Assembly (NCBI GenBank): GCA_024763475.1
Contig: JANTFM010000001.1
Coordinates: 7,879 to 71,878 of the forward strand
Direction of reading: 5' to 3'
Source: Acidobacteriota bacterium
GTDB taxonomy: Bacteria; Acidobacteriota; Polarisedimenticolia; J045
Length of the DNA stretch: 64,000 nt
Positions 18,501 to 41,482 of the stretch are shown one piece after another (the stretch's first letter is position 1; every line of letters starts with the position of its first letter). The position numbers and the translations under genes are program-made. The notes beneath the pieces were generated by a model, which saw only the letters and a program-made list of their open reading frames with translations, had not been told where the DNA came from and did not search any database.

Positions 18501-20293
18501 GCGTTCGGCCCGAGCCTCCGCCCCGAGCTCACGGGGGAATGCCGCCTCCTCCGGATAGCGTGATCGATGCCCATCTCGAGCGAGAGCGGCAGCGTCTGCT
18601 GCGGGAGGCGGGTCTCGCCTCGTCGCCTCCCCAGCACTTGCGTAAGCTCGCCGAACACCCCTTTCTCGAGGAGGAACGCGATTCGGTCACGATCCTGACC
18701 GGGGGGTTCTCGCGGCATCATGACCTCTTTCTGCGCGCCGGTTTCCAGGGCCTCGGCTACACCAGGACCGAGCTCGTTCCAACGCCGACCAAGGCCGACT
18801 TTCAAGCAGGCAAGGAGTACGGCAACAACGGCCAGTGCAGCCCGACCTACTTCACCGTGGGTGCCCTGGTGAACTACCTGAAGCGGCTCAGGGACGAGGA
18901 AGGCCTGTCCACCGAGACGATCGTGAGGGACTACGTCTTCGTCACGATGGGGGCCTGCGGCCCCTGCCGCTTCGGCATGTACGAGTCGGAGTATCGCCTC
19001 GCCCTGCGCAATGCGGGCTTCGAGGGATTCCGCATCGTGCTGTTCCAGATCAAGGGCGGTGTGCACCAGGTCAACGGCCAGAAGCCGGGGATCGCGTTCG
19101 ACCTCGACTTCTTCCTCACCTTCGGCAACCTGGTCATGCTTGCCGACCTCGTCAACGAGGTGGCGCGCCAGATTCGCCCCTACGAAGTGGTCCCGGGCCG
19201 GACGGATCGCGTCTTCGAAAAGGTGCAGGAGAAGATCCAGGCCGGGCTCCGTGAGCTCAGCCTTCATGTCGAGCGCCCGAGTGCCCCCGCGCGACTCCTC
19301 GCCCCGCTTCTCCCGCTCAAGGACTCCGCTGAGGTCGATAAGTTCCTGGCGCAGCTGCGCTCACAACACTTCGTTTCGATCCTCGAAGAGTGTGCACGCC
19401 TGATCGACGAAGAGATCGAGGTCGACTACACGAGGCCGCGTCCCAAGGTAAAAGTCACTGGTGAATTCTGGGCCACGCTGACAGAGGGTGACGGGAACTA
19501 CAACATGTACCGCTACCTCGAGAGCCAGGGTGCGGAGGTGGCAGCCGAGCCGATCACGACCTGGATCACCTTCCTGGTTTCCCAAGCCCGGGTCTACGCA
19601 AAGGACGCCAAGGGTCTCGCCAGTGCCGAGGTCGAAGGGGGTTTCGCTCGTCTTCGCGCACGGGCGGGGGAAGAGCTCCAGCACCACAAGCGCATGCTCG
19701 TTCTTGGAGTCACAGAGAGGATCCTCAAGCGTGAGTACGATCGCCTGCGCGCCGCCCTTGGCGGCACCGCGAACCAAAGCGCGGATCACGACGAACTCCG
19801 GCGTCTCGCCCACTCCTTCTACAACTCGCGCTCGCAGGGCGGGGAGGGGCACATGGAGGTCGCCAAGACCATCTACTACTCGAGTCGCGGCCTGGCGCAC
19901 ATGGTGCTCAGTCTCAAACCCTTCGGTTGCCTGCCATCCACGCAGTCGGACGGCGCACAGGTCGCCGTGCTGGCCCAGTATCCACAGGCGACCTTCCTGC
20001 CGGTCGAAACCTCCGGCGAAGGGGATATCAACGCCTACAGCCGGGTCCAGATGGTGCTCGCGGAGGCCAAGACGAAGAGCCGGGACGAGTTCCAGGAGTC
20101 CATCGCGAAGACCGGTTTCTCCCTCGAGGAGATCCGGGACTATGCAGCGGGGAGGCGGGAGCTCAGACGCCCCCTGCAGCAGGTCCCGAAGATCGAGGGT
20201 GTCGCGGGCCGGGCGGCACGTTTCGTCCAGTACGTTGCCGGCTTGATGCGCGAGGACGGCCTGCGCCCGGATCCCGCGCCATGCCCGAGATAG
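18497..20293 (+). CDS. CoA-enzyme-activase-associated protein (DUF2229 / 2-hydroxyacyl-CoA dehydratase-related; conserved Cys motif ACGPCRFG)
   Basis: 598 aa. The ATGA start overlaps the TetR stop. The segment MGACGPCRFGMYESEYRLALRNAGFEGFRIVLF and the overall composition resemble the DUF2229 component that partners with BadF/BadG/BcrA/BcrD-type activases. Assignment is by motif recollection, not by search. Confidence 0.5.
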   Translation: MSVRPEPPPRAHGGMPPPPDSVIDAHLERERQRLLREAGLASSPPQHLRKLAEHPFLEEERDSVTILTGGFSRHHDLFLRAGFQGLGYTRTELVPTPTKADFQAGKEYGNNGQCSPTYFTVGALVNYLKRLRDEEGLSTETIVRDYVFVTMGACGPCRFGMYESEYRLALRNAGFEGFRIVLFQIKGGVHQVNGQKPGIAFDLDFFLTFGNLVMLADLVNEVARQIRPYEVVPGRTDRVFEKVQEKIQAGLRELSLHVERPSAPARLLAPLLPLKDSAEVDKFLAQLRSQHFVSILEECARLIDEEIEVDYTRPRPKVKVTGEFWATLTEGDGNYNMYRYLESQGAEVAAEPITTWITFLVSQARVYAKDAKGLASAEVEGGFARLRARAGEELQHHKRMLVLGVTERILKREYDRLRAALGGTANQSADHDELRRLAHSFYNSRSQGGEGHMEVAKTIYYSSRGLAHMVLSLKPFGCLPSTQSDGAQVAVLAQYPQATFLPVETSGEGDINAYSRVQMVLAEAKTKSRDEFQESIAKTGFSLEEIRDYAAGRRELRRPLQQVPKIEGVAGRAARFVQYVAGLMREDGLRPDPAPCPR

Positions 20294-23200
20294 CCTCGGG
20301 ACACAGGCGCCCGTACAGCGAGGTCCTGGTCATCGGGCTCGATGTCGGGAGCACGACGGTCAAGGCCGTCGTCGTCGAACCCGGCCAACAGGTCGTGATC
20401 TATCGGAACTACCGTCGGCACGAGGCGCGTCAGACCGAGCTATGTCTCGAGTTTCTCGAGCAGATAGAAAAGGAACTCTCGCCCCACGCTGAAGCAGGAT
20501 TCCGGATCGCCGTCACGGGCTCGGGTGGCAACGAGATCGCGGAGCGTCTCGGCGCCCCCTTCGTCCAGGAGGTCAGCGCCATCAGCCTGGCCGTGACGAG
20601 GCTTTATCCCGAGGTTCGGAGTGTCGTCGAACTCGGCGGCCAGGATGCGAAGATCATCATCTTCAAGGAGGACCCGGCGACCGGTCGTAAGAAGACCTAT
20701 CCCTCGATGAATGACAAGTGTGCCGGCGGCACGGGATCGGTGATCGACAGGATCAGTGCCCGGCTGAACGTCCCTCCCGGGGACGTCGCCACCATGCGCT
20801 ACGAGGGCGTGCGTCTGCATCCCGTGGCGGGCAAGTGTGGTGTCTTCGCCGAGACCGACATCAATAGCCTGGTCAAGCAGGGCATCCCCACGGACCAGCT
20901 CGTTGCCTCTCTCTTCGAGAGCATCGTTCAGCAGAATCTTTCGGTTCTGACCCGGGGGCATACGCTGATGCCCCAGGTGCTCCTGCTCGGCGGCCCCAAC
21001 CACTACATTCGCGGGCTCGTCGAGTGTTGGAGGCACAACATCCCCCTGCTCTGGAAGGAGCGAAAGGTCACGCTGCCCGCGGGCCAGAGCATCCGTGAGC
21101 TGATCGTCGTCCCGGAAAACGCCCACTACTTTGCTGCATTGGGCGCCGCAGAGACGGCCGAGGAGGAAGCGAACGATGATCCATCGTTCGGGATCTACCA
21201 CGGGTGTAAGGTGCTGCGCAGCAGCTTGGCGCGGGACGAGGGGGCCGCTCGGCTCAGAACGGGACTGAGCCCTCTCTGCCAGAGTGAGGAAGAGCAGGCC
21301 CGCTTCGAAGAGCAGTATCGCCCGCCGCCATGGGAGCCGGTGCGCTTCGAGGCGGGCACCCGAGTCGAGGCCTACCTCGGCCTCGACGGCGGATCAACGA
21401 GCACCAAGGCCGTACTCCTCGACCCCCGGATGCGGGTTCTCGCCAAGGCCTACCAGCTGAGCCGTGGGAATCCGATTCAGGACGCCAAGGAGATGTTCGC
21501 GTCGCTCGAGTCGCAGATCCTCGAGCAGGACTGCACGCTCGAGATCCTGGGGCTGGGAACGACCGGGTACGCCAAGGACATCCTCAAGGATGTCTTCCGA
21601 GCCGACGTGGCTCTCGTGGAGACCGTGGCCCACACCCAGGCGGGACTGCACTACTTCTCAGGATCGGATGTGATCATCGACGTGGGTGGTCAGGACATTA
21701 AGCTGATCTTCCTCAAGAACGACGCGGTCCACGATTTCAAGTTGAATACCCAGTGCTCGGCGGGAAATGGCTACTTCCTGCAGGGAACCGCCGAGGCCCT
21801 CGGCTTCCGCGTCGAGGACTACGCGGACATCGCCTTCTCAGCCCGTGCGATGCCCGAATTCGGCTACGGGTGTGCGGTGTTCATGCAGACCGACATCGTG
21901 GATTTCCAGCGCCAGGGATGGAGTGCCGAGGAGATCATGGCGGGGCTCGCCGCCGTGCTGCCGAAGAACATCTGGCTCTATGTCGCCAAGATTTCCAACC
22001 TGCCCAAGCTCGGCCGGAAGTTCATCCTGCAGGGTGGGACCCAGCACAATCTCGCTGCGGTCAAGGCTCAGGTCGACTTCATTTCCTCGCGTTTCGTCGG
22101 TTCCGGCGTAGAGCCCGAGGTGATCGTCCATCCGCACTGCGGGGTGTCGGGGGCGATTGGTTGTGCGCTCGAGGTGCACCGTCTTCACGAGGAGCAGGGG
22201 CAGGAGACTCGTTTCATCGGCCTCGCGGCGGCCCAGGACATCGGCTATCACGCGATACGGGGAGAAGAAACCCGCTGCGGCTTCTGCAAGAACAAGTGTC
22301 TGAGGACCTTCATCGATCTCTCGGGCGGGGAACGCATCATCATCGCGACCTGTGAGAAGGGCTCGGTGGAAGAGCTTGCTGACATGAAGCGGATCAAGAA
22401 GGGACTCGATGCCGCGAAGCGGGCCAACCCCAATCTGGCGGAGATCTCGGCCCGTGAGGTGTTTCGTCCCGTAGAGGTTCTCCAGAGTCGTTCTGGCCCC
22501 GTGGAACGACGTCGTGCAGCCCTGCCCTTCGTGAAAGGGAGAGCAGCTCGGCGGGCGGAACGTGTCGAGAGACGTGAGCGTGTGCGGATCGGCATGCCTC
22601 GCGTCATGAATCTTTACTCGATGGCGCCGGTGTTCATGGGCTACTTCCAGAGTCTGGGCGTAGCGGCGGAGAACCTCGTCTGGTCCGACTACAGCTCCGA
22701 GGAGCTCTACCGCGGCGGGGCGAAACGTGGAAGCATCGACCCCTGTTTCCCGAGCAAACTGGGCATTCCCCATCTTCACAACCTGATGGAGAAGAAGCAC
22801 ACGGCGGACAGGCCGCTTTCCCACATCTTCTTCCCGATGATCGACACGCTCCCCACGGTGCTCGTCGGGACGATTGCCAACCGTGCCTGTCCCACCGTCT
22901 GCAACACGCCCGAAGCCGTGGGTGCGGCCTTCATCAAGGAGGGCGATCTCTTCGCGGAACAGGGCATCGTCTTCAAGAAGACCTTCTGCAACATCGACAA
23001 CCCGCTCCTCCTCGCGCGACAGCTCTTTCTCGACTGGAAGGACGAGATCGGCGTCACCGAAGAAGAGTCCCGTTTCGCGGTTCGCCAGGGTCTTGCCGCC
23101 CTCGAGGCCTTCGAGGCGGCGCGGCGCGCTGAGTCCCGCAAGATCATCGATCGTCTTGAGCGGGAGGGCGGCATTGGGCTCGTGCTGCTCGCGAGGCCCT

Positions 23201-23757
23201 ACCACAACGACCCGGGGATCAACCACGAGATCTGCGCCGAATTCCCCAAGCTCGGCTACCCGGTACTGACCCAGTCCAGCCTGCCGCTGGACGAGGACCT
23301 GCTCCTACGCCTTTTTGGCGATGAGATCGACAGGGGCGAGGTGGCGCACCCGATGGATATCGGCGAGGTGTGGAAGAACTCCTACTCGGAGAACTCCTCC
23401 CGCAAGATCTGGGCGGCCCGCTTCGTGGCCCGCCATCCCAACCTCGTCGCCCTTGAGCTGTCCAACTTCAAGTGTGGCCACGATGCGCCGATCTACAGCC
23501 TGGTGGAAGAGATCATCGGCCGCTCAGGAACCCCTTACTTCTCTTTCAAGGACATCGACGAGAACCGTCCCGCCGGATCGATCAAGATCCGCGTCGAGAC
23601 CATCGCCTACTTCCTCGAGCGCTACCACCAGAAACTCAAGCAGGAGCTTGCCACCCGGAGGGCGATCGCCCTTCACCTGGAGAAACTCCAGCGGGAGCTG
23701 CGTGGCGGGGGGCACGGGACGAACGCCAACAGCTCGGGGTTTCCTTCGCGGGGATAG
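20281..23757 (+). CDS. Acyl-CoA dehydratase activase-related protein: two tandem BadF/BadG/BcrA/BcrD-type ATPase (ASKHA) domains + C-terminal HgdB/2-hydroxyglutaryl-CoA dehydratase D-component-like domain
   Basis: Start is at MPEIASGHRRPYSEVLVIGLDVGSTTVKAVVVEP (20281, 13-nt overlap with the upstream gene); the extension from 19927 is rejected. A second activase domain begins at AYLGLDGGSTSTKAVLLDP. The C-terminal part contains the Cys-rich segment IANRACPTVCNTPEA typical of the dehydratase D-component. Confidence 0.65.
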   Translation: MPEIASGHRRPYSEVLVIGLDVGSTTVKAVVVEPGQQVVIYRNYRRHEARQTELCLEFLEQIEKELSPHAEAGFRIAVTGSGGNEIAERLGAPFVQEVSAISLAVTRLYPEVRSVVELGGQDAKIIIFKEDPATGRKKTYPSMNDKCAGGTGSVIDRISARLNVPPGDVATMRYEGVRLHPVAGKCGVFAETDINSLVKQGIPTDQLVASLFESIVQQNLSVLTRGHTLMPQVLLLGGPNHYIRGLVECWRHNIPLLWKERKVTLPAGQSIRELIVVPENAHYFAALGAAETAEEEANDDPSFGIYHGCKVLRSSLARDEGAARLRTGLSPLCQSEEEQARFEEQYRPPPWEPVRFEAGTRVEAYLGLDGGSTSTKAVLLDPRMRVLAKAYQLSRGNPIQDAKEMFASLESQILEQDCTLEILGLGTTGYAKDILKDVFRADVALVETVAHTQAGLHYFSGSDVIIDVGGQDIKLIFLKNDAVHDFKLNTQCSAGNGYFLQGTAEALGFRVEDYADIAFSARAMPEFGYGCAVFMQTDIVDFQRQGWSAEEIMAGLAAVLPKNIWLYVAKISNLPKLGRKFILQGGTQHNLAAVKAQVDFISSRFVGSGVEPEVIVHPHCGVSGAIGCALEVHRLHEEQGQETRFIGLAAAQDIGYHAIRGEETRCGFCKNKCLRTFIDLSGGERIIIATCEKGSVEELADMKRIKKGLDAAKRANPNLAEISAREVFRPVEVLQSRSGPVERRRAALPFVKGRAARRAERVERRERVRIGMPRVMNLYSMAPVFMGYFQSLGVAAENLVWSDYSSEELYRGGAKRGSIDPCFPSKLGIPHLHNLMEKKHTADRPLSHIFFPMIDTLPTVLVGTIANRACPTVCNTPEAVGAAFIKEGDLFAEQGIVFKKTFCNIDNPLLLARQLFLDWKDEIGVTEEESRFAVRQGLAALEAFEAARRAESRKIIDRLEREGGIGLVLLARPYHNDPGINHEICAEFPKLGYPVLTQSSLPLDEDLLLRLFGDEIDRGEVAHPMDIGEVWKNSYSENSSRKIWAARFVARHPNLVALELSNFKCGHDAPIYSLVEEIIGRSGTPYFSFKDIDENRPAGSIKIRVETIAYFLERYHQKLKQELATRRAIALHLEKLQRELRGGGHGTNANSSGFPSRG

Positions 23758-30462: not shown

Positions 30463-31122
30463 ATGGAACCCGAAAAGCGATTTTTCTTTCCCCGTTGGTT
30501 TAACCTCCTGCTGCCTGCTCTGGGCGTCGTGCTTGTGGGTGGACCGCTCTACCTCATCGTCGTGGTCTGGCTCGGATTCTCTCCGATGGCGGTTAGCGTC
30601 GGGTATGCTCCCGAGCAGCCCGTTCCCTATTCCCACGCCCTCCACGCGGGAGAACTGGGGATCGACTGCCTCTACTGTCACAACACGGTCGAGGAAAGCG
30701 GAAGAGCTGCGATACCTCCGTCTGCGACCTGCATGAACTGTCACGAGCGGATCAAGGCGAAGAGTGAGGCGCTTGCGCCGATCAGGGAGAGCATGGAGAC
30801 TGGCGAGCCAGTCAAGTGGGTGAGGGTGCACGACTTGCCGGACTTCGTCTACTTCAACCACAGCGCTCATGTCTCGCGAGGTGTGGGCTGCGTCGAGTGT
30901 CATGGCCGGGTGGATCGCATGGAGGTCGTCACCCAAGTCAAGCCCCTGAGCATGGGATGGTGCCTTGCTTGCCATCGCGATCCCGACGCCCGGCTTCGGC
31001 CCTTGGATCGGATCACCGATCTCGGCTGGGAGCCGGATGGAGATCGACTCGAGATCGGTCGTAAGGTACGAGAAGAAAACAACATCCAACCCTCCACGGA
31101 CTGTTCCACATGTCATCGATGA
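30463..31122 (+). CDS. actA: Alternative complex III subunit ActA, membrane-anchored pentaheme cytochrome c
   Basis: There are five CxxCH motifs (CLYCH, CMNCH, CVECH, CLACH, CSTCH). An N-terminal TM helix is present. It is first in an act operon. Confidence 0.8.
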   Translation: MEPEKRFFFPRWFNLLLPALGVVLVGGPLYLIVVVWLGFSPMAVSVGYAPEQPVPYSHALHAGELGIDCLYCHNTVEESGRAAIPPSATCMNCHERIKAKSEALAPIRESMETGEPVKWVRVHDLPDFVYFNHSAHVSRGVGCVECHGRVDRMEVVTQVKPLSMGWCLACHRDPDARLRPLDRITDLGWEPDGDRLEIGRKVREENNIQPSTDCSTCHR

Positions 31123-34100
31123 AAAAGCCTGTATCGGGAAAGGCGTTCTGGCGTTCCCTCGAGGACTACGCCGAGGCCCCGGAGTTCATGCGCTGGGCCA
31201 AGGCGGAGTTTCCTGCTCTGCTTGAGCCGATGAGTCCCCCGTCGCGCCGGTCCTTCCTGCGCCTGATGGGAGCCTCGGCGGCTCTCGCGGGGCTGGCGGC
31301 TTGCCGTTGGCCCAAGGAGACCATTCTCCCGTTCTCCCAGCGGCCGGAAGACCTCGTCCCCGGGGTTCCCCAGCGCTTCGCCACGGCCTTCGATTACGGT
31401 GGCCACGCCCAGGGACTGCTCGTCACGAGCTACGACGGCCGCCCGATCAAGATCGAGGGCAACCCGGAGCATCCCCTGTCGCGGGGGGCCAGCAACTCCT
31501 TCGCCCAGGCGTCGGTGCTGAGCCTCTACGACCCGGATCGCTCACGGGTCCCCTATTCCGGGGGCAAGAAGAGTTCTTGGGCGGACTTCGATGCCGCGTT
31601 CGGCGCGCAGACAACGGCTCTTGCCGCGTCCGGTGGAGCGGGTTTCGCCGTGCTGGCCGAGGCGAGTTCGTCGCCCAGCCGCGCGCGCTTGCAGGCTGAG
31701 ATAGAGTCCGCCTGGCCCAACGCCCGCTGGTTCGAGTACGAAGCGATCTCCCGGGACAACGAGCGGGAGGGTACGCGGCTCGCCTTCGGGAAGCCCCTGC
31801 GGCCCCAGTACGACTTCTCCAAAGCCGAGCTTGCCGTCTGCCTCGATGCCGACCTCCTGGGAGAGCATCCGGCGTCCCTCGCCCATGCCCGGGGCTTCGC
31901 GGTGTCCCGGCGCCGGATCGACGAGGGCCGACTCGGTCGCCTCTACGCGATCGAGAGCTGCTATTCGATCACCGGAGCCGCAGCCGACGAGCGTTTCCCG
32001 ATGCCCAGCGGCCGGATTCCCGCACTCCTCGTTGCCATCGCTCAAGGCCTCGAGGCGGCTGGAGTTGCCCTGCCCTCGGGTGTGCTCCGCGCCGCCGTGT
32101 CCGCATTTCCGCCTGGCGAGAGCCTGCCCCTCGTGGCCACGATCATCGAGGATCTGCTGCGCCATCGCGGCCACGGCTTCGTGGCCGTTGGTGCCCAGCA
32201 CCTGGCGGAAGCCCACGCTCTGGCGTTCGCCATCAACGATGCCCTCGCGAACACGGGCCATACGGTCTCTTACCTTCCCTGTCCTGATCCGGAACGGGTG
32301 TCTCACTCGACCGCGATTGCCAGCCTGGCAAGGAAGATCGAGGCGGGAGAGCTCACCACGCTCCTCGTTCTCGGTGCGAACCCGGTCTACAACGCCCCTG
32401 CGGACTTCGATTTCGGTGCTTTGCTGGCCAAGGTCGGCCAGACGATTCATCTCGGGCAGTACCGCGATGAGACCGCCGAGAAGTGCCTCTGGCACCTCCC
32501 CGAAGCGCACTATCTCGAATCCTGGGGTGATGCCCGCTCCTGGGATGGAAGCGTCAGCGTCGTCCAGCCGCTGATCGAGCCCTTGCACGGATCGCGCAGC
32601 GCCCTCGAGATCCTCGCCGGTGTTCTCGGTCGCCAGCCGGCGGACGGACATGGGATCGTCCGAGAGACGATCACCGGACTCGCTGGCGACAAGGGAGACA
32701 AGGCGTGGCGCCGCACCTTGCATGACGGTCTGCTTGCCGGCAGTGCGCCTGCGCCCGTCCATCCCCGGATCGATGGCTCATCGGTCGCCGCGTCCCTGGC
32801 TTCGGCGAAGCCCAAGGCTGCTGGTGATCTGGAACTCGTCTTCACCACGGCTCCGGACGTCTACGACGGACGCTTCGCGAACAACGCCTGGTTACAGGAG
32901 ACGCCCGATCCGCTGACGAAACTCACCTGGGACAACGCACTGCTCGTGGGACCCGCCACGGCGGACAAGCTGGGTGTGCGCCATGGCGAGCTGGCGAAGG
33001 TGGAGGCTGGCGGCCGCTCGATCGAGGCCCCGGTGTTCATCGCTCCGGGCCAGGCCCTCGGGTCGATTGCCCTCGGCCTCGGTTACGGCCGGACCGCGGC
33101 CGGCAGGGTCGGCAGCGGCGTGGGTATCAGCGCCTACCCCCTGAGAACTCTCGCGGACGCCGGTTGGTCCAGCGGCATCACGGTGACAGGCACCGGACAG
33201 GTCTTCAAGTTGGCGACGACCCAGGATCATTTCGCGATCGATGTGGGGGGCCGCGAGGAGACGGAGCGCCGCCGACCCGAGCTCGTGCGCGAGGCGAATC
33301 TCGAGGAGTTCAAGCGGGTCCCCGACTTCGTTCGCCACCGCAGCCACGACATAGAGCTCTTTTCCCTCTGGGAGGAGTTCACCTACGAAGGTCACAGCTG
33401 GGGCATGTCGATCGACCTGAACACCTGCATCGGCTGCAACTACTGCGCGGTGGCCTGTCAAGCCGAGAACAATGTCCCGGTCGTCGGCAAGGAGCAGGTG
33501 TACAACGGCCGCGAGATGGCCTGGCTGCGCGTGGATCGCTACTACGGGGGGGATCCTGAGGATGCAAGCATCGCGTTCCAGCCCCTCGCCTGTCAGCAGT
33601 GCGAGATGGCGCCCTGCGAAGAGGTCTGCCCGGCATCAGCGACCGTTCATGACGACGAAGGCCTCAATACGATGGTCTACAACCGCTGTATCGGGACGCG
33701 CTACTGTTCCAACAACTGCCCTTACAAGGTGCGTCGTTTCAACTTCTTCAACTACCACAAGAATCTGACGGAACTCGAGTCGCTGGGGATGAATCCCGGT
33801 GTCTCCGTTCGATCGCGTGGTGTGATGGAAAAGTGTACCTACTGCACGCAGCGCATCGCCCAGGTAAAGATCCTGGCCAAGAACGAGGGGCGTCCCATCG
33901 AGGACGGCGAGATCACGCCCGCCTGCGCCCAGGCCTGTCCGACGCAGGCCATCACCTTCGGCGACCTCAACGATGAGAAGAGTCGCGTCCGCGAGCTGCA
34001 CCAGGACAAGCGGGCCTACTCGCTCCTGGGCGAACTGAACATCAAGCCGCGCACGAAATATCTGGGGCGGATAAAGAACCCATCCTCCATGGGACACACG

Positions 34101-34127
34101 GAGCACAGCTCCGAGGAGCATCACTGA
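31110..34127 (+). CDS. actB: Alternative complex III subunit ActB (fused B1 molybdopterin-oxidoreductase-like + B2 4Fe-4S ferredoxin-like), Tat signal
   Basis: The twin-arginine signal is SRRSFLRLMGASAALAGLAA. There are four Cys clusters: CIGCNYCAVACQAEN, CQQCEMAPCEEVCP, CIGTRYCSNNCPY and CTYCTQRI...CAQACP. 1005 aa, the expected ActB size. Confidence 0.85.
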   Translation: MSSMKKPVSGKAFWRSLEDYAEAPEFMRWAKAEFPALLEPMSPPSRRSFLRLMGASAALAGLAACRWPKETILPFSQRPEDLVPGVPQRFATAFDYGGHAQGLLVTSYDGRPIKIEGNPEHPLSRGASNSFAQASVLSLYDPDRSRVPYSGGKKSSWADFDAAFGAQTTALAASGGAGFAVLAEASSSPSRARLQAEIESAWPNARWFEYEAISRDNEREGTRLAFGKPLRPQYDFSKAELAVCLDADLLGEHPASLAHARGFAVSRRRIDEGRLGRLYAIESCYSITGAAADERFPMPSGRIPALLVAIAQGLEAAGVALPSGVLRAAVSAFPPGESLPLVATIIEDLLRHRGHGFVAVGAQHLAEAHALAFAINDALANTGHTVSYLPCPDPERVSHSTAIASLARKIEAGELTTLLVLGANPVYNAPADFDFGALLAKVGQTIHLGQYRDETAEKCLWHLPEAHYLESWGDARSWDGSVSVVQPLIEPLHGSRSALEILAGVLGRQPADGHGIVRETITGLAGDKGDKAWRRTLHDGLLAGSAPAPVHPRIDGSSVAASLASAKPKAAGDLELVFTTAPDVYDGRFANNAWLQETPDPLTKLTWDNALLVGPATADKLGVRHGELAKVEAGGRSIEAPVFIAPGQALGSIALGLGYGRTAAGRVGSGVGISAYPLRTLADAGWSSGITVTGTGQVFKLATTQDHFAIDVGGREETERRRPELVREANLEEFKRVPDFVRHRSHDIELFSLWEEFTYEGHSWGMSIDLNTCIGCNYCAVACQAENNVPVVGKEQVYNGREMAWLRVDRYYGGDPEDASIAFQPLACQQCEMAPCEEVCPASATVHDDEGLNTMVYNRCIGTRYCSNNCPYKVRRFNFFNYHKNLTELESLGMNPGVSVRSRGVMEKCTYCTQRIAQVKILAKNEGRPIEDGEITPACAQACPTQAITFGDLNDEKSRVRELHQDKRAYSLLGELNIKPRTKYLGRIKNPSSMGHTEHSSEEHH

Positions 34128-34130
34128 TCC

Positions 34131-35597
34131 ATGAGCACAGGACTATCTGAAAACCTGAGCCAGGATCCACGGCAGCGGCCCACGCTGGTGCTGGGGGGCA
34201 AGGGCTTCACCGAGGTGACGGACACGGTCTGTGCCGTGTCCGAGCGGCGCAAGTGGCCGGCGATCTGGTATATCGCTTTCGCCTGTTCCCTGGTTCTCCT
34301 GGGCGTGCTTGGCGCCTGCCTGACCTACCTGATCAGCACGGGTATCGGGGTGTGGGGCAACAACATGCCCGCTGCCTGGGGATTCCCGATCGTCAACTTC
34401 GTGTTCTGGGTCGGCATCGGACACGCAGGTACGCTGATCTCGGCGGTGCTCTTCCTCTTTCGCCAGAAATGGCGGACGAGTATCAACCGCTCCGCGGAGG
34501 CGATGACGATCTTCGCAGTGGCCTGTGCCGGCATCTTCCCGGCGGTGCATGTCGGGAGGGTCTGGCTGGCCTACTGGCTCTTTCCCATTCCCAACCAAAT
34601 GTCCATGTGGCCGAATTTCCGTTCGCCGCTGCTCTGGGACGTATTCGCCGTGAGCACCTACGCCACCGTGTCCAGCATGTTCTGGTACATGGGTATGATC
34701 CCGGATCTGGCGACCCTTCGAGACAGGGCGACTGGCAAGGCGAAGCAGTTCTTCTACGGCCTCTTTTCCCTGGGTTGGTCCGGGTCCAATCGCCACTGGC
34801 TTCGTTTCGAGCGGGCCTACTTGCTGCTTGCGGCGCTCGCGACCCCGCTGGTGCTCAGCGTGCACTCGATCGTGTCCTTCGACTTCGCGGTCTCGATCCT
34901 GCCGGGCTGGCACACGACGATCTTTCCGCCCTACTTCGTCGCTGGGGCGATCTTCAGCGGGTTCGGGATGGTGATGACGATTCTCATTCCCTGCCGTTCG
35001 GCCTTCGGGCTGCAAGATCTGATCACGACGCGCCACGTAGAGAACATGGCCAAGGTGATCCTCGTGACCGGCTCGATGGTGGGCTACTCCTATACGATGG
35101 AGTTCTTCATCGCCTGGTACAGCGGCAACCTGGTTGAGCAGTTCGCCTTCGTCAACCGCTCCTTCGGACCCTACGCTTGGGCCTACTGGACCATGTTCAG
35201 CTGCAACGCCTTCATTCCTCAGCTCTTCTGGTTCAAGAAGGTCCGCCAGACGATGCTTCTCGCCTGGATTGTCAGCATTCTCGTCAACGTGGGGATGTGG
35301 TTCGAGCGATTCGTGATCGTCGTCACCTCGCTGACGCGGGACTACCTCCCCTCGAGTTGGGGCATGTTTCGGCCGACCTCTATCGACTTTCTGACCTTCC
35401 TCGGCAGCTTCGGTTTGTTCTTCACGCTCTTCCTGCTCTTCGTTCGTTTCCTGCCGATGGTCGCGATGGCCGAGGTGCGGAGCGTGATGCCGCAGGCCCA
35501 TGGCATCGTCGGTGAAGGACACCGTCCCTTCGGTGACTACTGGCCCGACTCTGTTCATCCGGAGCGGCAGCGAAAGCCGTCGCCGGAGGAAGAGTGA
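34131..35597 (+). CDS. actC: Alternative complex III subunit ActC (NrfD/PsrC-like polytopic quinol-interacting membrane subunit)
   Basis: 488 aa with ~10 TM helices. NrfD-family motifs include [25 protein letters not shown]. Position in operon also fits. Confidence 0.8.
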
Positions 35598-36142
35598 TGA
35601 ACCACGACACGGCGCCCCTGTGGGGCATGATGGCCGAATTCGACAACGTCAGCGATACCCTCGCCGCCGCGGAGAAGACCCGCGACGCCGGCTTCAAGCA
35701 CTGGGACACGCACACTCCCTTCCCAGTGCACGGGCTGTGTGATGCGATGGGCATGCGGGATACGCGTCTGCCATGGGTCGTGCTCACGGCAGGAATCACC
35801 GGGGCCCTCTTCGGCCTGGCGCTGCAATACTTCACCAATGCCGTGGACTATCCGTTCGTGATCAGCGGCAAGCCGTTGTTCAGCCTGCCTGCGAATATTC
35901 CGGTGGTCTTCGAGTGCACGATCCTCTTCGCCGCGCTGACGGCCTTCAAGGCCATGCTCGTGGCGAATCGTCTGCCGCAGCATCATCGGCCACTCTTCAA
36001 GAAGGAGCGCTTCCGGCGGGCCACGCAGGACCGCTTCTTCATCGTGATCGAGGCGGCGGATCCCAAGTTTGATGCGGACAGGACGCGCGCCTTTCTCGAG
36101 TCGCTTGGCGGGCTCTCCGTTGAGGAGGTAGAGGATCGATGA
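35594..36142 (+). CDS. actD: Alternative complex III subunit ActD (DUF3341 membrane protein)
   Basis: 182 aa with a single TM segment; ATGA-coupled to actC. Size and position fit ActD. Confidence 0.65.
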
Positions 36143-36792
36143 GGGTACCGAGGGGAGTCATCTACCTGCTCATTGTGGCGGTTGCGCTGACGCTGCTACC
36201 GCTGGCAGTGATCGCACTGGCGCGCACCTCGACGTCGTCCAAGCCGCGGATTCACATCGTTCCCGACATGGATAGCCAGGAGTCCTTCAAGGCGCAACAG
36301 GGTTCCACGCTCTTCAGCGACGGCCGTGCGGCGCGCCTGGCGCCGGCCGGAACGGTCGCCCGAGGCCAGCTCAAAGAGGACGACCACTACTATCGGGGCA
36401 AGATCGCAGACGCGTATGCGACCGAGTTCCCCAAGCAGGTTCAGGTCACGGAAGAACTCCTCCTGCGGGGCAAGAACCGATTCCAGGTATTCTGCGCCCC
36501 TTGCCACGGTCGTGCCGGCTACGGAGACGGTATGGTGGCCCGGCATGCGGACGCACTGGCCGAGGGCACCTGGACCCAGCCAGCGGACTTCCACACGGAC
36601 GCCATCCGGCAGCGGCCGGTCGGCGAGATCTTTGATATCTTGACCAACGGGGTACGCAACATGCCGGCCCATGGTCGCCAGATCAAAGTACATGATCGCT
36701 GGGCGATCGTGGCTTACGCCAAGGCGCTGCAACTCAGCCAGGAGGTCGACGTTGAATCCCTCCCGGCCGAGTTCCGCCAAGGCCTGCGCTAA
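36139..36792 (+). CDS. actE: Alternative complex III subunit ActE, monoheme cytochrome c
   Basis: There is a single CAPCH heme-binding motif and an N-terminal signal/lipobox-like segment. ATGA-coupled to actD. Confidence 0.75.
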   Translation: MRVPRGVIYLLIVAVALTLLPLAVIALARTSTSSKPRIHIVPDMDSQESFKAQQGSTLFSDGRAARLAPAGTVARGQLKEDDHYYRGKIADAYATEFPKQVQVTEELLLRGKNRFQVFCAPCHGRAGYGDGMVARHADALAEGTWTQPADFHTDAIRQRPVGEIFDILTNGVRNMPAHGRQIKVHDRWAIVAYAKALQLSQEVDVESLPAEFRQGLR

Positions 36793-36798: not shown

Positions 36799-38022
36799 TT
36801 GGGGATGCATACCCATCTGATCGATATCACGAAGGAAAAACGCTTTCTGGGTTCTCTTGGGCAGCGGTTGACTCTCGGGGGTGGTGTGGCCGGTATCGTG
36901 GGCCTGGCCGTGTCCTTCGGCCTGGCATCGACCTCTGAAGACGGTATTCATCGTCTGTGGTGGTCCTACCTCCACAACTGGACCTTCTTCCTGACGATTG
37001 CTCTCGGCGCACTCTTCTTCGTGCTGGTCGAGCACCTGGCCAAGGCGGGTTGGAGCGTTGTTCTAAGGAGGCTCTCCGAGGGCGTCTCGATGACGCTCGT
37101 CTTGCTGGCGATCCTCTTCGTGCCGCTGATTTTCGGCCTGCATGACCTGTATCACTGGCTGCACGCGGATCTCGTGGCCCAGGACCATGTGCTACAGCAC
37201 AAGGCGTCCTACCTGAACCAGACCTTCTTCCTGGTCCGCGTCGCGGTCTACTTCCTCTTCTGGATCGGGGCGGCGTTCCTGATGCACCGCAACTCGGTCA
37301 AGCAGGACCAGAGCGGCGATCACTTGCTGACGGGGAAGATGGAAGCCCTCAGCGCGCCTTTCATGATGATCTTTGCACTGACGACGACCTTCGCATCCTT
37401 CGACCTGCTGATGTCCCTCGATCCGCACTGGTTCTCGACGATCTTTGGCGTCTATTTCTTTGCCGGGTCCTTCATGTCTTTCCTGGCCTTCCTGTCCGTG
37501 ATCATCGTCGGCTTGCAGCGAAGTGGCCGGTTGACGGGTGCCATCACCGACCAGCACCTGCATGATGTCGGAAAGTTCCTGTTCGCGATGCTCGTCTTCT
37601 GGGCTTACATCGCGTTCTCACAGTACCTGCTGATCTGGTATGGCAACCTTCCAGAAGAGACCGGATGGTACCTGCGGCGGCAGACGGGGACTTGGTCCAG
37701 CCTCGGGATCGTGATGATCTTCGGGCACTTCCTGATCCCCTTTCTGTTCTTGCTCTCGCGGCACATCAAGCGGCGGCCTCTGCTGCTCTCCCTGGGCGCG
37801 TTGTGGCTGCTGGTGATGCACTGGCTCGATCTTTATTGGTTGATCATGCCCGAGTATGACCACGCTCTCACCGCGATCCCGTTCAGCCTGCTAGACCTGA
37901 GTTGCCTGGTGGGTATCGGGGGCTTCTTCATCGCCGCCTGGGCGTGGTTCCTCAGGCGTTGCTCGTTGATCGCCGAGAAAGACCCGCGTCTCGCGGAATC
38001 GCTCACCTTTGAGAACGCGTGA
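36799..38022 (+). CDS. actF: Alternative complex III subunit ActF (second NrfD-like membrane subunit)
   Basis: 407 aa polytopic membrane protein paralogous to ActC (WYGNLPEETGWY). Operon position fits. Confidence 0.75.
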   Translation: MGMHTHLIDITKEKRFLGSLGQRLTLGGGVAGIVGLAVSFGLASTSEDGIHRLWWSYLHNWTFFLTIALGALFFVLVEHLAKAGWSVVLRRLSEGVSMTLVLLAILFVPLIFGLHDLYHWLHADLVAQDHVLQHKASYLNQTFFLVRVAVYFLFWIGAAFLMHRNSVKQDQSGDHLLTGKMEALSAPFMMIFALTTTFASFDLLMSLDPHWFSTIFGVYFFAGSFMSFLAFLSVIIVGLQRSGRLTGAITDQHLHDVGKFLFAMLVFWAYIAFSQYLLIWYGNLPEETGWYLRRQTGTWSSLGIVMIFGHFLIPFLFLLSRHIKRRPLLLSLGALWLLVMHWLDLYWLIMPEYDHALTAIPFSLLDLSCLVGIGGFFIAAWAWFLRRCSLIAEKDPRLAESLTFENA

Positions 38023-38367: not shown

Positions 38368-39363
38368 ATGAATCCTGCACCCTCGTGGATGCCCCCCCAG
38401 GCCGCGGATATCGCGAAGAGCGTGGATTGGAGCTTCGAGGTCACGCTGTTTATCGCACTCTTCCTTGCGGTGACGGTGGTCGGTCTGCTTGCGCTCTTTG
38501 TCTCGACCAGCCGTCCCCAGGACAAGCAGTCGGCTGGGCGTGACGGTGCGGGCTGGGTGGTCCAGGCTTTCTGGGTCCTGGCCCCGCTGTTGATTTGCGG
38601 CTATCTGTTCACGCTGGGTCTTCCGGGCTATGTGTCCAATACGCGCCAGAGAAGCGAATCGTACACGGTGGTCGCTGCGGTCCAGCCCTGGACGGCGGAC
38701 GAGTCCAAGGAGCGGTCCGAGGGTGAGCTTCCGATCGCCGATTGGTCGTTTACCTACCCCAACGGTTTCGTCGCTCGGGACCTGCGCTTGCCAGCGCATA
38801 AGAAGATTCATCTCGTGGTTCAGGGCAGCCAAGGCGCTCAGACACTCTACGCGCCGGCCCTGCGCATCGAGGGCAAGGCCGCCTTCGGAGAAAAAGAGGA
38901 TTTTTGGTTCGAGACCTCGGATCCGGGAAGCTACCCGCTTTTCAACACGGTCTATAGCGGGGGCGAGTTCCTGGGCATGGGTGCCGAACTCATGATCAGC
39001 GACGCGGCGGAGTTCGACACCTGGCTCCAGGAAGTCTCGAACGATCTCTCGGGGCTTCCGCCCGCCGAGGCCGGCCAGGTCGTCTTCCAGCGCAACGGAT
39101 GTGTGGCTTGCCATTCGATCAACGGAACGCCGCTGGTCGGGCCGAGCTTCCAGGGATTGTGGGGCCGGTCCGAGACGCTTGCCGATGGAAGCAGCGTCGT
39201 CGTGGATGCGGACTATGTCGCGGAGTCGATCTTCAATCCGACAGCTAAAGTGGTCAAGGGCTTCCAGCCCGTGATGCCCCCGTTCGCCGGGCGCATTTCC
39301 GACGAGCACGTCGGCTTCCTCATCGAGTACATGAAGTCCCTGAACGGGGAGGGTGCCAAATGA
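38368..39363 (+). CDS. Heme-copper oxidase subunit II-like protein lacking the CuA ligands, with a C-terminal monoheme cytochrome c domain (caa3-type architecture, degenerate)
   Basis: Two N-terminal TM helices plus a cupredoxin-like periplasmic domain are typical of CoxB. The CuA motif H-x34-CxExCGxxHxxM is absent: the corresponding region reads LYAPALRIEGKAAFGEKEDFWFETSDPGSYPLFNTVYSGGEFLGMGAELM with no Cys or His. The C-terminal heme c site is CVACH, with a downstream Met. Confidence 0.6.
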   Translation: MNPAPSWMPPQAADIAKSVDWSFEVTLFIALFLAVTVVGLLALFVSTSRPQDKQSAGRDGAGWVVQAFWVLAPLLICGYLFTLGLPGYVSNTRQRSESYTVVAAVQPWTADESKERSEGELPIADWSFTYPNGFVARDLRLPAHKKIHLVVQGSQGAQTLYAPALRIEGKAAFGEKEDFWFETSDPGSYPLFNTVYSGGEFLGMGAELMISDAAEFDTWLQEVSNDLSGLPPAEAGQVVFQRNGCVACHSINGTPLVGPSFQGLWGRSETLADGSSVVVDADYVAESIFNPTAKVVKGFQPVMPPFAGRISDEHVGFLIEYMKSLNGEGAK

Positions 39364-40928
39364 GCGCCACGCATGCAGCTGCTGCCCCATCCGGCACCCA
39401 GGGGAGCTGGCTCTTCAGCCTGGATCACCGCCGCATCGGCGTCCTCTACCTGTGGGTCTCCTGTTTCGCAATCCTCGTGGCCGCCTTCCTCGGCTGGTTG
39501 ACGGCCGTGGAGACGGCCTATCCAGGGCAGACCTTCGTTGGTGAGCAGGACCTCCACCTGCTCGGTGCCGGCCGGGGCCTCTTCCTTGTGTTTTTCTTCC
39601 TGCTGCCGGCCATCCCGGCTGGTCTCGGCAATTTCATTCTGCCGCTGCAGGTCGGCGCAGAGAATGTCTTCCATCCGTCGATGAATCGCCTGGCGCTTCA
39701 TACCTTCCTGCTGGGCCTTCTCGCCGCCGTGGTGGCGGCGTTACTCGGTGGAGCGGATGCGTGGTGGGCCCCGCTGACGCCCTATGACTTGGGGCCCGGT
39801 GCGGTCGTGACCTGGTCGATGGCCGCCGCCGCACTCGTCGTATTCTCGATGATGATGACCAGTCTCAATTTCATCGGGACGGTTCATCTGCGCCGGGCTC
39901 CCGGTATGAGCCTGTCCCGGCTCCCGGTGAGTGTCTGGGCGATCTACATCTACTCCTGGGTTCACATCGTGGCTGCGCCGGCGGCGACTCTCGCCTATGG
40001 CGCGATGTTGATGAGTCGCGGCAAGGAGATGCCCTTCACCAATCCCGAGACGGGTTTCGCCTTCTCGCAGATCGAGATGCTCTTCTGGTTCTTCGCGGCT
40101 CCCGTGCTCCTGGCCACGATCCTGCCCGTGATCGGCGTCGTGACGGAGGTCCTTTCGGCGCAGACCCGCCGACGGCCTGCGGCGCCAGGACTCCTGGTCT
40201 ACGCGATGGCCGCAATCGGCGTCATGTCCTTCATGGTGTGGGGACGGGAACTTTTCTCGATCGGCGCGCATGAACGACTGGCGATCGTCGGCAGTGTTGC
40301 GTCCTTCCTGGTCTACGCCCTCGTCTTGACGATCATCTTCGCCTGGATCGGCACCCTGTCCCAGCGTGGCAGTGGTTTCCAAGTGGATGCTGCCTTGCTC
40401 TACGCGGTCTTCGCGATCGCTTTCCTCGCGATCGGCGCTCTTGCCGGTTGTTTTACGGCCTCCATGGCCCTCGGCCCTTACCTCGGCCCGTCGCTCTTTG
40501 CCTCCGGCCGCTTCGAACTCCTCGTGGTGAGCCCGGTGGTCATGGGGCTTCTGGCGGGGCTGCACTACTGGTGGCCCAAGCTCAGGGGGTGCAGCTGCCG
40601 GGGCACGGCCGCGAGCCTGGGAGCTTGGGCGGTCTTCCTGGGATTGCTTCTCTCCGGACTGGGCAAGCTGGCGCTGGGCATCATGGGTGTTCCTGCGCGA
40701 GCGTATTCCGCAGGTGGGCCTCACCTGGCCGCTTACCTTGCGGAGCTGGGGGCGACCCTCGTGCTCTGCGGTCTCTTCGTAGTGGTGACGGTGCTTGCGC
40801 GCGCCGAGAAGGGAAGCGACGAGGGGATCGAGGGCGCGGGCCTCGAATGGCAGGCCGGCTCCTTCAACGACGCCGAGAACTTCTCGACAGTTCCGGATGG
40901 CCACATCGACCCCTACGACTTCCGCTGA
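39360..40928 (+). CDS. Heme-copper oxidase subunit I-like protein with all canonical CuB/heme a3/heme a His ligands substituted (pseudo-oxidase subunit I)
   Basis: The N-terminus WLFSLDHRRIGVLYL matches COX1 (WLFSTNHKDIGTLY), and HYWWPK matches HYWFPK. However FWFFGHPEVY is replaced by FWFFAAPVLL, WAHHMF by WGRELF, and the HDTYYVVAHFHY region by ASGRFELLVVSP. 522 aa with ~12 TM helices. Confidence 0.6.
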   Translation: MSATHAAAAPSGTQGSWLFSLDHRRIGVLYLWVSCFAILVAAFLGWLTAVETAYPGQTFVGEQDLHLLGAGRGLFLVFFFLLPAIPAGLGNFILPLQVGAENVFHPSMNRLALHTFLLGLLAAVVAALLGGADAWWAPLTPYDLGPGAVVTWSMAAAALVVFSMMMTSLNFIGTVHLRRAPGMSLSRLPVSVWAIYIYSWVHIVAAPAATLAYGAMLMSRGKEMPFTNPETGFAFSQIEMLFWFFAAPVLLATILPVIGVVTEVLSAQTRRRPAAPGLLVYAMAAIGVMSFMVWGRELFSIGAHERLAIVGSVASFLVYALVLTIIFAWIGTLSQRGSGFQVDAALLYAVFAIAFLAIGALAGCFTASMALGPYLGPSLFASGRFELLVVSPVVMGLLAGLHYWWPKLRGCSCRGTAASLGAWAVFLGLLLSGLGKLALGIMGVPARAYSAGGPHLAAYLAELGATLVLCGLFVVVTVLARAEKGSDEGIEGAGLEWQAGSFNDAENFSTVPDGHIDPYDFR

Positions 40929-40934
40929 GCCCGA

Positions 40935-41482
40935 TGGTTGACCGGGAGACATCGAATCCCGTTCGGGCGGCCATCTCCCACTGGACGGAGCCTGTCTTCG
41001 GGCTCGCGGGTCTCGCGCTTGTCGCGGTGGTGCTGCTATTCATCGTCAGAGGTTGGGTCCCCAGGGAGCGGCCTCATCCGGGGTCCCCAGAGATCGGAAG
41101 ACTCGCCGTCCTGCCCTTCGATGAGATCGGTGACGAAGCTGCCGCCGCCCCAGACAGCGGGTCAATCCTGGAGGCGCTGACCAGCGAGTTCTCCCACTAC
41201 CTGGCCGTGATCCCGTCCGAGCAGAGCCAGCTCCAGGGGCGGAGCAAAAAGACCCTGCGGGAGATTGCGGAAGACCTCGGCGCCGACTCGCTCCTGGTGG
41301 GTAGCATCATCGCCGGAGACAGCGGCACCCGCGTGCGCGCACGCCTCGTGCGAGCCGAGCAGAGCCGCGAGCTGTTTGCCGTCCGTGTGCTCGGAGAGGA
41401 TCCTGCGCGCCTCGCGGCGCAAATGCGGACGACGATTCTTGGGGAAGATGCGCCGCGAAGGACGGCTGAAGAGACGCGGTGA
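40935..41482 (+). CDS. Hypothetical membrane-anchored protein (N-terminal TM helix; periplasmic/cytoplasmic alpha/beta domain)
   Basis: ATG at 40935. A TM segment (FGLAGLALVAVVLLFIV) is followed by a ~140-aa soluble region. No family recognised. Confidence 0.4.

Follow-up and report, generated by a model that had tools for sequence, protein, structure and literature searches.

Can the core of a haem-copper oxidase persist in a respiratory operon after every ligand of its redox centres has been lost? This question is raised by two adjoining genes in a stretch of 64,000 nucleotides from an Acidobacteriota bacterium (Polarisedimenticolia; GCA_024763475.1, contig JANTFM010000001.1, positions 7,879 to 71,878), hereafter called the window. 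The genes, at 38368–39363 and 39360–40928 of the window, encode homologues of oxidase subunits II and I, here called CoxII-like and COX1-like, and they close a complete operon for alternative complex III (ACIII). A previous sequence-only reading of this DNA had pointed out substituted ligands in the COX1-like protein. The analysis below finds that none of the ligands is left, that both genes are under purifying selection and that the partner subunit keeps the haem c motif of its cytochrome c domain; a metal-free scaffold holding an additional c-type haem at ACIII is probably what remains.

Fold and homology of the COX1-like protein

The COX1-like gene is an open reading frame (ORF) for 522 amino acids, which runs from ATG to TGA with no internal stop. 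Its homology to COX1 had been called unmistakable, and this is borne out: the protein matches Pfam COX1 (PF00115) over residues 25–451 with an E-value of 2.7e-59 and 201.6 bits against a cut-off of 34.8. In a phmmer search against PDB sequences, it is aligned end to end with subunit I of the yeast, Thermus caa3, bovine, E. coli bo3 and mycobacterial oxidases (E-values from 1e-51 to 1e-35). Every motif quoted in the sequence-only reading is found in the ORF, namely WLFSLDHRRIGVLYL at residues 17–31, FWFFAAP at 242–248, WGRELF at 294–299, ASGRFELLVV at 381–390 and HYWWPK at 402–407. An AlphaFold2 (AF2) model built from a 61-sequence alignment (pLDDT 87.4, pTM 0.91) has twelve long helices, as had been counted in that reading, and is matched by Foldseek to solved COX1 chains with TM-scores of 0.88–0.91; the model is guided by cofactor-containing homologues, and it supports retention of the fold rather than any detail of the emptied pockets. 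The score against the CtaD/CoxA equivalog model TIGR02891 is 263.8 bits, far below the cut-off of 670.75. In terms of descent, the product belongs to the haem-copper oxidoreductase (HCO) superfamily and stems from the A2 caa3 clade.

Loss of the haem and copper ligands

The ligand columns were read from three alignments, i.e., a pairwise alignment with yeast COX1, a MAFFT alignment of 15 sequences (14 homologues) and an alignment with 80 canonical ACIII-linked COX1 proteins. They are concordant at every ligand column, on which grounds an alignment artefact was rejected, and the codon coordinates were verified. Hereafter the columns are given as a seven-letter pattern in the order helix II His, CuB His, Tyr, CuB His pair, haem a3 His and helix X His, which is HHYHHHH in canonical proteins, among them 80 of 80 in the ACIII-linked set. 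In the COX1-like protein, 0 of the 6 His ligands survive, their columns being occupied by R72, A247, R296, E297, R384 and E386, and the column of the cross-linked helix VI Tyr holds L251. Where haem a had its axial ligands, Arg (helix II) and Glu (helix X) are found instead, and the a3/CuB cluster has become Arg, Arg and Glu. The three CuB His, the Tyr, the a3 His and one haem a His had been listed as replaced, and this part stands, together with the statement that a binuclear centre cannot be assembled, as all of its ligand columns hold non-ligand residues. The helix II His, which had been thought to persist in the motif DLHLLGAGRG, is also gone: H66 of this motif is located six residues before the ligand column, at a conserved Asn of canonical proteins, and the column itself holds R72, replaced by Gln in a close relative. 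H66 was rejected as a surviving ligand because of its wrong column and its lack of a partner residue.

Other functional residues are missing as well. Among the pump residues of the A family (D132, E286 or the A2-type “YS” motif, and K362 in R. sphaeroides numbering), the D-pathway Asp is N102, the K-pathway Lys is I325 and “YS” is F245-A246. One of the two haem-propionate Arg residues is lost (PRR to PAR), and so is the “HD” of the Mg site. The nitric oxide reductases (NORs; cNOR, qNOR, eNOR and gNOR) have two haems and an FeB/CuB site with at least two His; the COX1-like protein has no haem ligand and no metal-site His, and a NOR-type enzyme was rejected for this lack of any ligands. By sequence, none of the family's defining functional features tested is present, and the protein is neither an oxidase nor a NOR.

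The residues that are kept are of a different kind. Of the 170 columns conserved in at least 95% of the 80 canonical ACIII-linked COX1 proteins, 74 are kept in the COX1-like protein, against a minimum of 156 among the canonical proteins themselves. Gly (15/25), Pro (14/20) and Trp (9/11) are retained in most of these columns, while the fraction kept is low for His (3/11), Met (0/5), Thr (3/11) and Ser (2/9). This pattern in the alignment is the signature of a fold that is retained with its active site given up.

The CoxII-like partner subunit

The upstream gene encodes a protein of the CoxII architecture whose score against the CoxB equivalog model TIGR02866 is 48.9 bits, below the cut-off of 147.7. 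Compared with the CuA motif H...C-x-E-x-C-x3-H-x2-M, the ligands are replaced by Q158 (His), N193 (Cys), V195 (Glu), S197 (Cys) and F201 (His), and M204 is the sole survivor. The AF2 model (pLDDT 83.9) consists of a transmembrane (TM) hairpin, a beta-sandwich and a helical cytochrome c fold, and the Pfam Cytochrom_C and CBB3 matches exceed their cut-offs. All relatives aligned, including every degenerate lineage examined, have C245, C248, H249 and M303 without exception, while the CuA ligands vary. On sequence and model, the C-terminal domain has what characterises the cytochrome c domain of a caa3-type subunit IIc, a CxxCH motif with a distal Met in a class I fold. Furthermore, identity to the nearest canonical proteins is 47–50% in the cytochrome c domain and 33–35% in the cupredoxin domain, whereas pairs of canonical CoxII proteins show the reverse order (61% and 74%, respectively); therefore, constraint has moved away from the CuA domain but is maintained on the haem c domain.

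The cupredoxin remnant is also opened by a 16-amino-acid insertion (TADESKERSEGELPIAD) at 38689–38745 of the window, corresponding to residues about 108–126. It is common to the window and its relative L088 (see below), is absent in all other CoxII proteins aligned, and is predicted as a short helix of low confidence.

Position at the end of an ACIII operon

The genes upstream of the pair encode, in order, a multihaem ActA, an ActB with iron-sulfur and complex iron-sulfur molybdoenzyme (CISM)-like domains, the NrfD-like ActC and ActF, ActD and the monohaem ActE (Table 1), so that the operon for ACIII is complete. The stop codon of the CoxII-like gene overlaps the start codon of the COX1-like gene (ATGA), a GGAGG sequence is found upstream, and the GC content at third codon positions is 0.80, as in the Act genes. 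In tblastn and Pfam scans, COX3, COX4, SCO1, CtaA, CtaB and cbb3 genes were found neither after the COX1-like gene nor elsewhere in the 64-kb window. A caa3 operon position had been assigned to the COX1-like gene; it does lie behind a CoxII-like gene, but the actual setting is the tail of an ACIII operon devoid of COX3, COX4, SCO1 and CtaAB.

Reality of the locus and purifying selection

The locus was independently assembled from SRR19843167 (L002) with 99.97% identity over 6452 bp, and a 91%-identical variant was obtained from SRR6014238 (L001). With three independent assemblies, an assembly artefact was rejected.

Comparison of the window with L001 (dS about 0.33) gave a dN/dS of 0.079 for the COX1-like gene (dS 0.33; 27 changes, mostly conservative) and 0.105 for the CoxII-like gene. 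Both are below those of lgt, an essential gene on the same contig (0.135), orf182 (0.219) and the beta-carbonic anhydrase gene (0.324); the ActG-like gene has 0.185. The four quarters of the COX1-like gene have values of 0.064, 0.015, 0.098 and 0.106, and Fisher tests against dN = dS gave p-values of about 1e-41 and about 1e-24 for the COX1-like and CoxII-like genes, respectively, in the direction of dN<dS. Both ORFs are intact in the two strains, and the CoxII-like gene of L088 is free of stops and frameshifts as well. A pseudogene was rejected on the intact ORFs and the low dN/dS. The sequence-only reading had noted clean substitutions free of frameshifts or stops, had proposed dN/dS across orthologues as a check and had suggested selection for a new function rather than decay. 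Purifying selection, measured on one pair of orthologues, agrees with the first and speaks for selection over decay. Of the last claim, conservation, packing of the kind seen in co-transcribed genes and the cytochrome c domain of the partner are observed, and the new function itself is what we infer from them.

Descent from a canonical caa3 oxidase

The COX1-like lineage is very small. Two protein searches, one word-indexed (5.8 billion proteins) and one exhaustive with HMMER (1.84 billion representatives), brought up no member of this lineage besides the window protein and a single relative of 95% identity, the rest being at most 36% identical. A metagenome scan with the CoxII-like alignment gave 31 loci, all of them canonical or fragments. 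Such lineage negatives need caution, since the word-indexed protein search with the CoxII-like query omitted the 46%-identical L088 protein and the metagenome scan missed L088, too. In the 80 best loci of a scan of genome contigs, COX1 is about 30–35% identical to the window protein, and nearly all are located in operons of the order ActB-F, COX2 and COX1 from phyla that include Myxococcota, Acidobacteriota, Rhodothermales and Verrucomicrobiota. The HHYHHHH pattern is complete in all but one, L017 (Tyr to Phe). This COX1 (L017:10001-11527) is otherwise canonical and ACIII-linked (HHFHHHH), and its ACIII, with an ActC of 69% identity, is among the closest to that of the window.

Closer ACIII relatives were found by searching with ActC. 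L088 (JGI 3300009008, Ga0115649_1031303; ActC 86% identical) has a CoxII-like protein that lacks the CuA cysteines and carries the insertion described above, and its contig ends at the start of a COX1-like gene. L087 (80%) and L090 (77%) have the full set of SCO1, COX2-cytochrome c, COX1 (HHYHHHH), COX3, COX4 and COX3, and a UbiA-family (CtaB-like) gene is found nearby in L087. In a neighbour-joining tree of ActB, ActC and ActF, the window and L088 form a pair that is sister to L087, with L089 and then L090 outside. As canonical L087 and L090 surround the pair of the window and L088, the loss of cofactors arose inside a clade with normal ACIII-caa3. Among canonical pairs at 65–70% ActC identity, COX1 identity is 66% on average and 57% at minimum, whereas the window has 69% ActC identity to its neighbours with a COX1 identity of only 30–32%. 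These sequence comparisons tell of cofactor loss followed by strong acceleration of divergence in the COX1-like protein, and it is well supported by them that the gene pair is the remains of an A2-type caa3 oxidase once encoded behind the ACIII operon.

Degenerate oxidase modules in other lineages

Similar modules are found elsewhere. In L003 (GCA_053998595.1), the module behind ACIII is partly degenerate: one CuA His is missing from its CoxII and one CuB His from its COX1 (HHYTHHH), and two unrecognisable genes stand at the places expected for COX3 and COX4. In two Planctomycete metagenome-assembled genomes (MAGs), L091:2132-20799 (GCA_016714045.1) and L092:2168-20701 (GCA_044228975.1), ACIII, a CuA-less CoxII-cytochrome c and a COX1-like gene are arranged in sequence. 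Their COX1-like proteins (HHGVHQH and HHSVHQH) keep the His pair of the low-spin haem and lack the a3 His, the Tyr and one CuB His, and the genes downstream are DsbD_2, CcoI, CcoS, a CcoN-CcoO fusion, CcoP and CcoG. It is possible, from this gene order, that they represent an ACIII-cbb3 assembly bridged by a relic caa3 module. Indeed, CuA-less CoxII-cytochrome c proteins form a sizeable Planctomycete family (P0440, P0444, P0448, P0456, P0459, P0461, P0464 and P0469-P0475), annotated merely as “c-type cytochrome” in the sources. In L124:71-15504 (Logan SRR31272973; the same genes are present in L125), an ACIII with an ActD-ActE fusion is accompanied by a degenerate CoxII, a COX1-like protein of the pattern RYFQEHQ, in which both low-spin haem His are replaced, and a weak COX3. 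The following genes, crtI, crtB, crtD, crtC, pucC and a Mg-chelatase-like (bchI-like) gene, resemble a photosynthesis gene cluster, which suggests an ACIII bearing a pseudo-oxidase in a phototroph.

The degenerate COX1 of L124 is 41–43% identical to canonical proteins and 29–38% to other degenerate ones; the corresponding values are 44–46% and 30–39% for L003, and 29–32% and 25–33% for the window. Each is nearer to canonical COX1 than to other degenerate COX1, which argues for independent origins, i.e., for at least three other ACIII lineages that carry independently degenerated CoxI/II.

A wider ligand census covered the 149 best representatives at 50% identity (P0124-P0272), of which 125 have all seven columns aligned; as a degenerate query favours degenerate matches, the counts are not frequencies in the superfamily. 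Fifty-five of the 125 are non-canonical, 29 lack the a3 His (most often replaced by Gln) and the two low-spin His are both missing in 4. At the second CuB position, Gln, Thr, Gly or Val often stands in for His, while the low-spin haem His pair is usually kept, and zero His is found in the window lineage only. Arg in helix II together with Glu or Gln in helix X recurs in P0138 and P0161. From these patterns, it could be that one-haem HCO-like proteins make up a large population not yet described.

Another case is L006:2155-5657 (Logan SRR32619195), which contains COX2, COX1 with a degenerate binuclear centre (HHMQHQH) and COX3. No ACIII is found on this 9.8-kb contig, and degeneration of oxidases therefore reaches beyond ACIII-linked cases.

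Comparison with known systems

Retention of an ex-catalytic module in a respiratory complex after loss of its cofactor or active site is familiar. The ActB1 domain of ACIII is a molybdopterin-less homologue of the CISM catalytic subunit, subunit II of bo3 oxidase has a CuA-less cupredoxin, and the core proteins of the mitochondrial bc1 complex are inactive peptidase homologues. In the ActB of the window operon, too, the molybdopterin-like region scores far below the family cut-offs. However, one domain or one metal site is concerned in these examples, whereas in the window a two-subunit core has four redox centres emptied.

Among intact oxidases, the nearest systems are A2-type caa3 enzymes encoded behind ACIII, as in Rhodothermus marinus (R. 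marinus), and Thermus thermophilus caa3 (PDB 2YEV). The operon order from ActA to ActG, CoxII with a C-terminal cytochrome c and CoxI is alike; the twelve-TM fold matches 2yev_A at a TM-score of 0.91, and the CoxII architecture is the same. In contrast, the window is devoid of the six His, the Tyr, “YS”, the K-channel Lys, the CuA Cys and His, COX3, COX4, SCO1 and CtaAB, and its COX1 identity reaches about 30% instead of the expected value of about 66%. In the clusters of L091 and L092, too, ACIII is followed by a CuA-less CoxII-cytochrome c and a COX1-like gene that is degenerate, and the gene boundaries overlap or nearly abut. Unlike the window, they retain the low-spin His pair together with two CuB His (HHGVHQH), encode ActD and ActE as a fusion, are followed by cbb3 genes and lack the cupredoxin insertion, and their COX1-like proteins, 27–28% identical to that of the window, have a separate origin.

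HCO members off the canonical ligand set, such as gNOR, nNOR and eNOR, have been described, some of them with a CuA-less cupredoxin subunit (Murali et al. 2024, PMC11214002). In these, one ligand or the Tyr is changed and both haems and the metal site are kept; the replacement of His by Asp in gNOR was described as the first case for the active-site His, which are otherwise completely conserved (Murali et al. 2024, PMC11214002). The COX1-like protein of the window keeps no ligand, which makes a catalytic centre impossible. In the full-text literature searched, which has most subscription journals outside its scope, neither a ligand-less subunit I of an HCO nor degenerate ACIII oxidase modules were found to be described, and no paper there combines “heme-copper oxidase” with “pseudoenzyme”.

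Possible function and alternative explanations

In the ACIII-caa3 supercomplex of R. marinus, oxidase subunits I/III lie beside ActC, and subunit IIc's cytochrome c domain lies beside ActE, which donates electrons to it directly (PMC5928083). By analogy, the twelve-helix COX1-like protein would be a metal-free membrane scaffold that docks on ActC and grips the TM hairpin of the CoxII-like subunit, placed beside ActC, ActA and ActE as in R. marinus. The CoxII-like cytochrome c would then be a tethered seventh haem beside ActE, lengthening the haem wire formed by ActA (five haems) and ActE (one). Arg and Glu pairs at the former His-Fe-His and His-Cu places, i.e., R72 with E386 and salt bridges among R296, E297 and R384, may take over the structural part of the cofactors, as their positions in the alignment suggest. 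Menaquinol electrons would leave, or possibly enter, ACIII through the CoxII-like haem, the sequence being compatible with both directions. There is no CuA or haem a behind this haem, and therefore the electron partner must be something other than an aa3 core. Candidates are the adjacent cbb3 in L091 and L092 and the photosynthetic chain in L124; that of the window organism would be encoded outside the window. We give a probability of roughly 0.6 to a metal-free oxidase scaffold that tethers a seventh c-type haem to ACIII, and a plausible role of such a pair is that of an electron port of ACIII. The attachment to ACIII, the electron flow through the c-type haem and the replacement of cofactors by salt bridges are the parts that we infer. 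A more general proposal is that the CoxI and CoxII core was turned into a cofactor-free pair of ACIII subunits, in which buried Arg and Glu replace the ligands and the c-type haem alone works, independently whenever ACIII was rewired to cbb3, to a photosynthetic chain or to an anaerobic acceptor. This is tentative, and we rate it at slightly less than even odds.

Several points weigh against the scaffold with its tethered haem. A scaffold that only holds a hairpin leaves the tight constraint on all twelve helices unexplained, and R72 is Gln in the close relative, which weakens any strict need for the salt bridge between R72 and E386. ACIII association, attachment of haem c and absence of non-covalent haem are predictions from sequence, and the AF2 model, driven by an alignment of cofactor-bearing homologues, gives no information on what fills the empty haem pockets. 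The electron acceptor is not encoded in the 64-kb window. Finally, dN/dS comes from one pairwise comparison, and the comparison of the Arg and Glu replacements within this lineage covers the window and L001, as the L088 contig ends at the start of the COX1-like gene.

The constraint along the whole COX1-like protein (0.015–0.106 per quarter), which seems beyond the needs of a passive anchor, is the starting point for another explanation, namely that the protein has been neofunctionalised as a proton or ion conduit, a gated pore made of the buried Arg and Glu residues, or a sensor or regulator of ACIII, with the cytochrome c domain being incidental. Five charged residues at ligand sites within the membrane core fit such a role, and so does the recurrence of the helix II His to Arg change plus a His to Glu or Gln change in the strongly degenerate P0138 and P0161. 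However, instead of being adapted, the canonical residues of the D- and K-pathways have been destroyed, no motif of a known transporter family was detected in the protein by Pfam and NCBIfam scans, R72 varies with Gln between close relatives, and the part of the partner that is best conserved relative to canonical proteins is its cytochrome c domain, pointing to electron transfer; we consider this explanation unlikely. It could also be assumed that the empty oxidase simply stabilises or assembles ACIII, and that electrons exit from ActE or ActA directly, bypassing the CoxII-like haem. The presence of degenerate modules behind ACIII in at least four lineages with differing downstream neighbours would be understandable on this assumption, but an unused haem can hardly explain why CxxCH and Met are invariant in every degenerate lineage examined while the CuA ligands vary. 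This makes a pure assembly or stability factor rather unlikely, too.

Two further explanations are far less probable. A recently inactivated oxidase whose ORFs are intact by chance would account for a COX1 identity of 30–32% in place of the 66% expected at the given ACIII divergence, for the disappearance of COX3, COX4 and SCO1, and for the finding of only two COX1-like sequences among about 15 billion proteins. This decaying relic is largely refuted by a dN/dS of 0.079 at a dS of 0.33 (p about 1e-41 against neutrality), lower than that of lgt, by the lack of stops and frameshifts in two strains and in the CoxII-like gene of L088, by the preserved overlap of stop and start codons, by a codon-position GC content like that of the neighbours and by the retention of equivalent modules in other lineages. 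A redox enzyme with haem or metal bound in an unconventional way, on non-His residues, H66 or another His, might be imagined, as the COX1-like protein still has eleven His, one of them (H66) close to the upper end of helix II, and as activity is assumed for HCOs with altered ligands such as gNOR (His to Asp) (PMC11214002). Metals are not ligated by Arg or Ala, though, and both partners of each former site have changed together; the Mg-site residues and one haem-propionate Arg out of two are lost, electron entry via CuA is gone, and H66 has no conserved partner. Such ligation is very improbable.

Gene order and neighbouring genes

The coordinates of the operon and of the sites discussed above are collected in Table 1. 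A gene of 102–135 amino acids is located at the position of the ActG-like gene in L003, L087, L088, L090, L091 and L092. Downstream of the COX1-like gene, orf182, a beta-carbonic anhydrase gene and lgt follow in this order. The orf182 product has a “LAVLPFDEIGDE...SLLVGSI” domain and is 85% identical at the amino acid level in L001, with a dN/dS of 0.219. It may be either an additional subunit or just a neighbour without any relation.

Table 1. Genes of the ACIII operon, the oxidase-derived pair and the positions of former ligands in the window
Feature	Position	Strand	Basis
ActA, pentahaem cytochrome c, N-terminal TM helix	30463–31122	+	Pfam Cytochrome_C7 and c3; five CxxCH
ActB, molybdopterin-oxidoreductase-like domain fused to 4Fe-4S domain, Tat signal	31110–34127	+	Pfam Fer4 families, Molydop_binding; NCBIfam QrcC/QrcB-like, TAT-variant signal
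ActC, NrfD-like quinol-binding membrane subunit	34131–35597	+	Pfam NrfD E 1.2e-20; 86% to L088, 80% to L087 ActC
ActD	35594–36142	+	Pfam ActD PF11821, E 5.8e-67
ActE, monohaem cytochrome c	36139–36792	+	Pfam Cytochrome_CBB3 and Cytochrom_C; one CxxCH at residue 119
ActF, second NrfD-like membrane subunit	36799–38022	+	no Pfam match; 45–70% identity to ActF of other operons
ActG-like, 106 aa, single TM helix	38045–38365	+	position conserved; dN/dS 0.185
CoxII-like subunit: TM hairpin, CuA-less cupredoxin remnant, C-terminal cytochrome c domain	38368–39363	+	CoxB score, alignment, AF2
Predicted haem c motif C245-V-A-C-H249 of CoxII-like subunit	39100–39114	+	invariant in all relatives aligned
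Met ligand candidate M303 of CoxII-like subunit	39274–39276	+	invariant in all relatives aligned
COX1-like subunit, 12 TM helices, without haem and CuB ligands	39360–40928	+	Pfam, alignments, AF2, dN/dS
R72 at helix II haem a His position (Gln in L001)	39573–39575	+	alignments
F245-A246-A247...L251 in place of A2-type “YS” motif, first CuB His and cross-linked Tyr	40092–40112	+	alignments
R296-E297 in place of helix VII CuB His-His pair	40245–40250	+	alignments
R384-F-E386 in place of haem a3 His and helix X haem a His	40509–40517	+	alignments
orf182, 182-aa single-TM protein of unknown family	40934–41482	+	6 bp after COX1-like gene; no Pfam/NCBIfam match

Pfam scans of the other large ORFs of the window revealed no respiratory genes. 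As to the source of the DNA, a DUF1570 gene and the best-named relatives from the ActC search are a hint of Planctomycetota. Rfam gave no matches in the window, and a scan for promoters and terminators gave nothing over the shuffled background. A protein of 2389 amino acids, encoded at 8170–15339 with PKD, He_PIG, Big_9, MG2 and DUF2341 repeats, is likely a giant surface adhesin. At 19927–23757, a fusion protein of 1276 amino acids carries two BcrAD/BadFG ATPase domains and DUF2229 and resembles CoA-enzyme activases typical of anaerobes, and on the reverse strand at 1128–2378, a DUF438-hemerythrin-PAS protein is encoded, which may be a sensor of O2 or redox state. The latter two proteins hint at a low-oxygen lifestyle.

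Implications

The six His residues have been treated as the defining and invariant feature of subunit I of haem-copper oxidases. A subunit I that has none of them and is under purifying selection like that of a housekeeping gene indicates that the fold can persist for a non-catalytic purpose. It offers two natural experiments, one on the part that an oxidase plays in ACIII supercomplexes besides reducing oxygen, and the other on how a two-haem protein stays folded without its haems. Annotation is also affected: at the domain level such genes are easily called “cytochrome c oxidase”, and strict models miss them, and either error distorts the aerobic capacity assigned to MAGs. In a genomic survey of Phycisphaerae, ACIII was reported for many genomes in which no terminal oxidase was recognised, a gap of the kind that unrecognised pseudo-oxidase genes would leave. 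If the more general proposal of repeated conversion is true, the ACIII of this clade would depend on a partner of oxidase shape, either for its assembly or for the exit of electrons, and genomes with “ACIII without a terminal oxidase” would conceal unannotated pseudo-oxidases.

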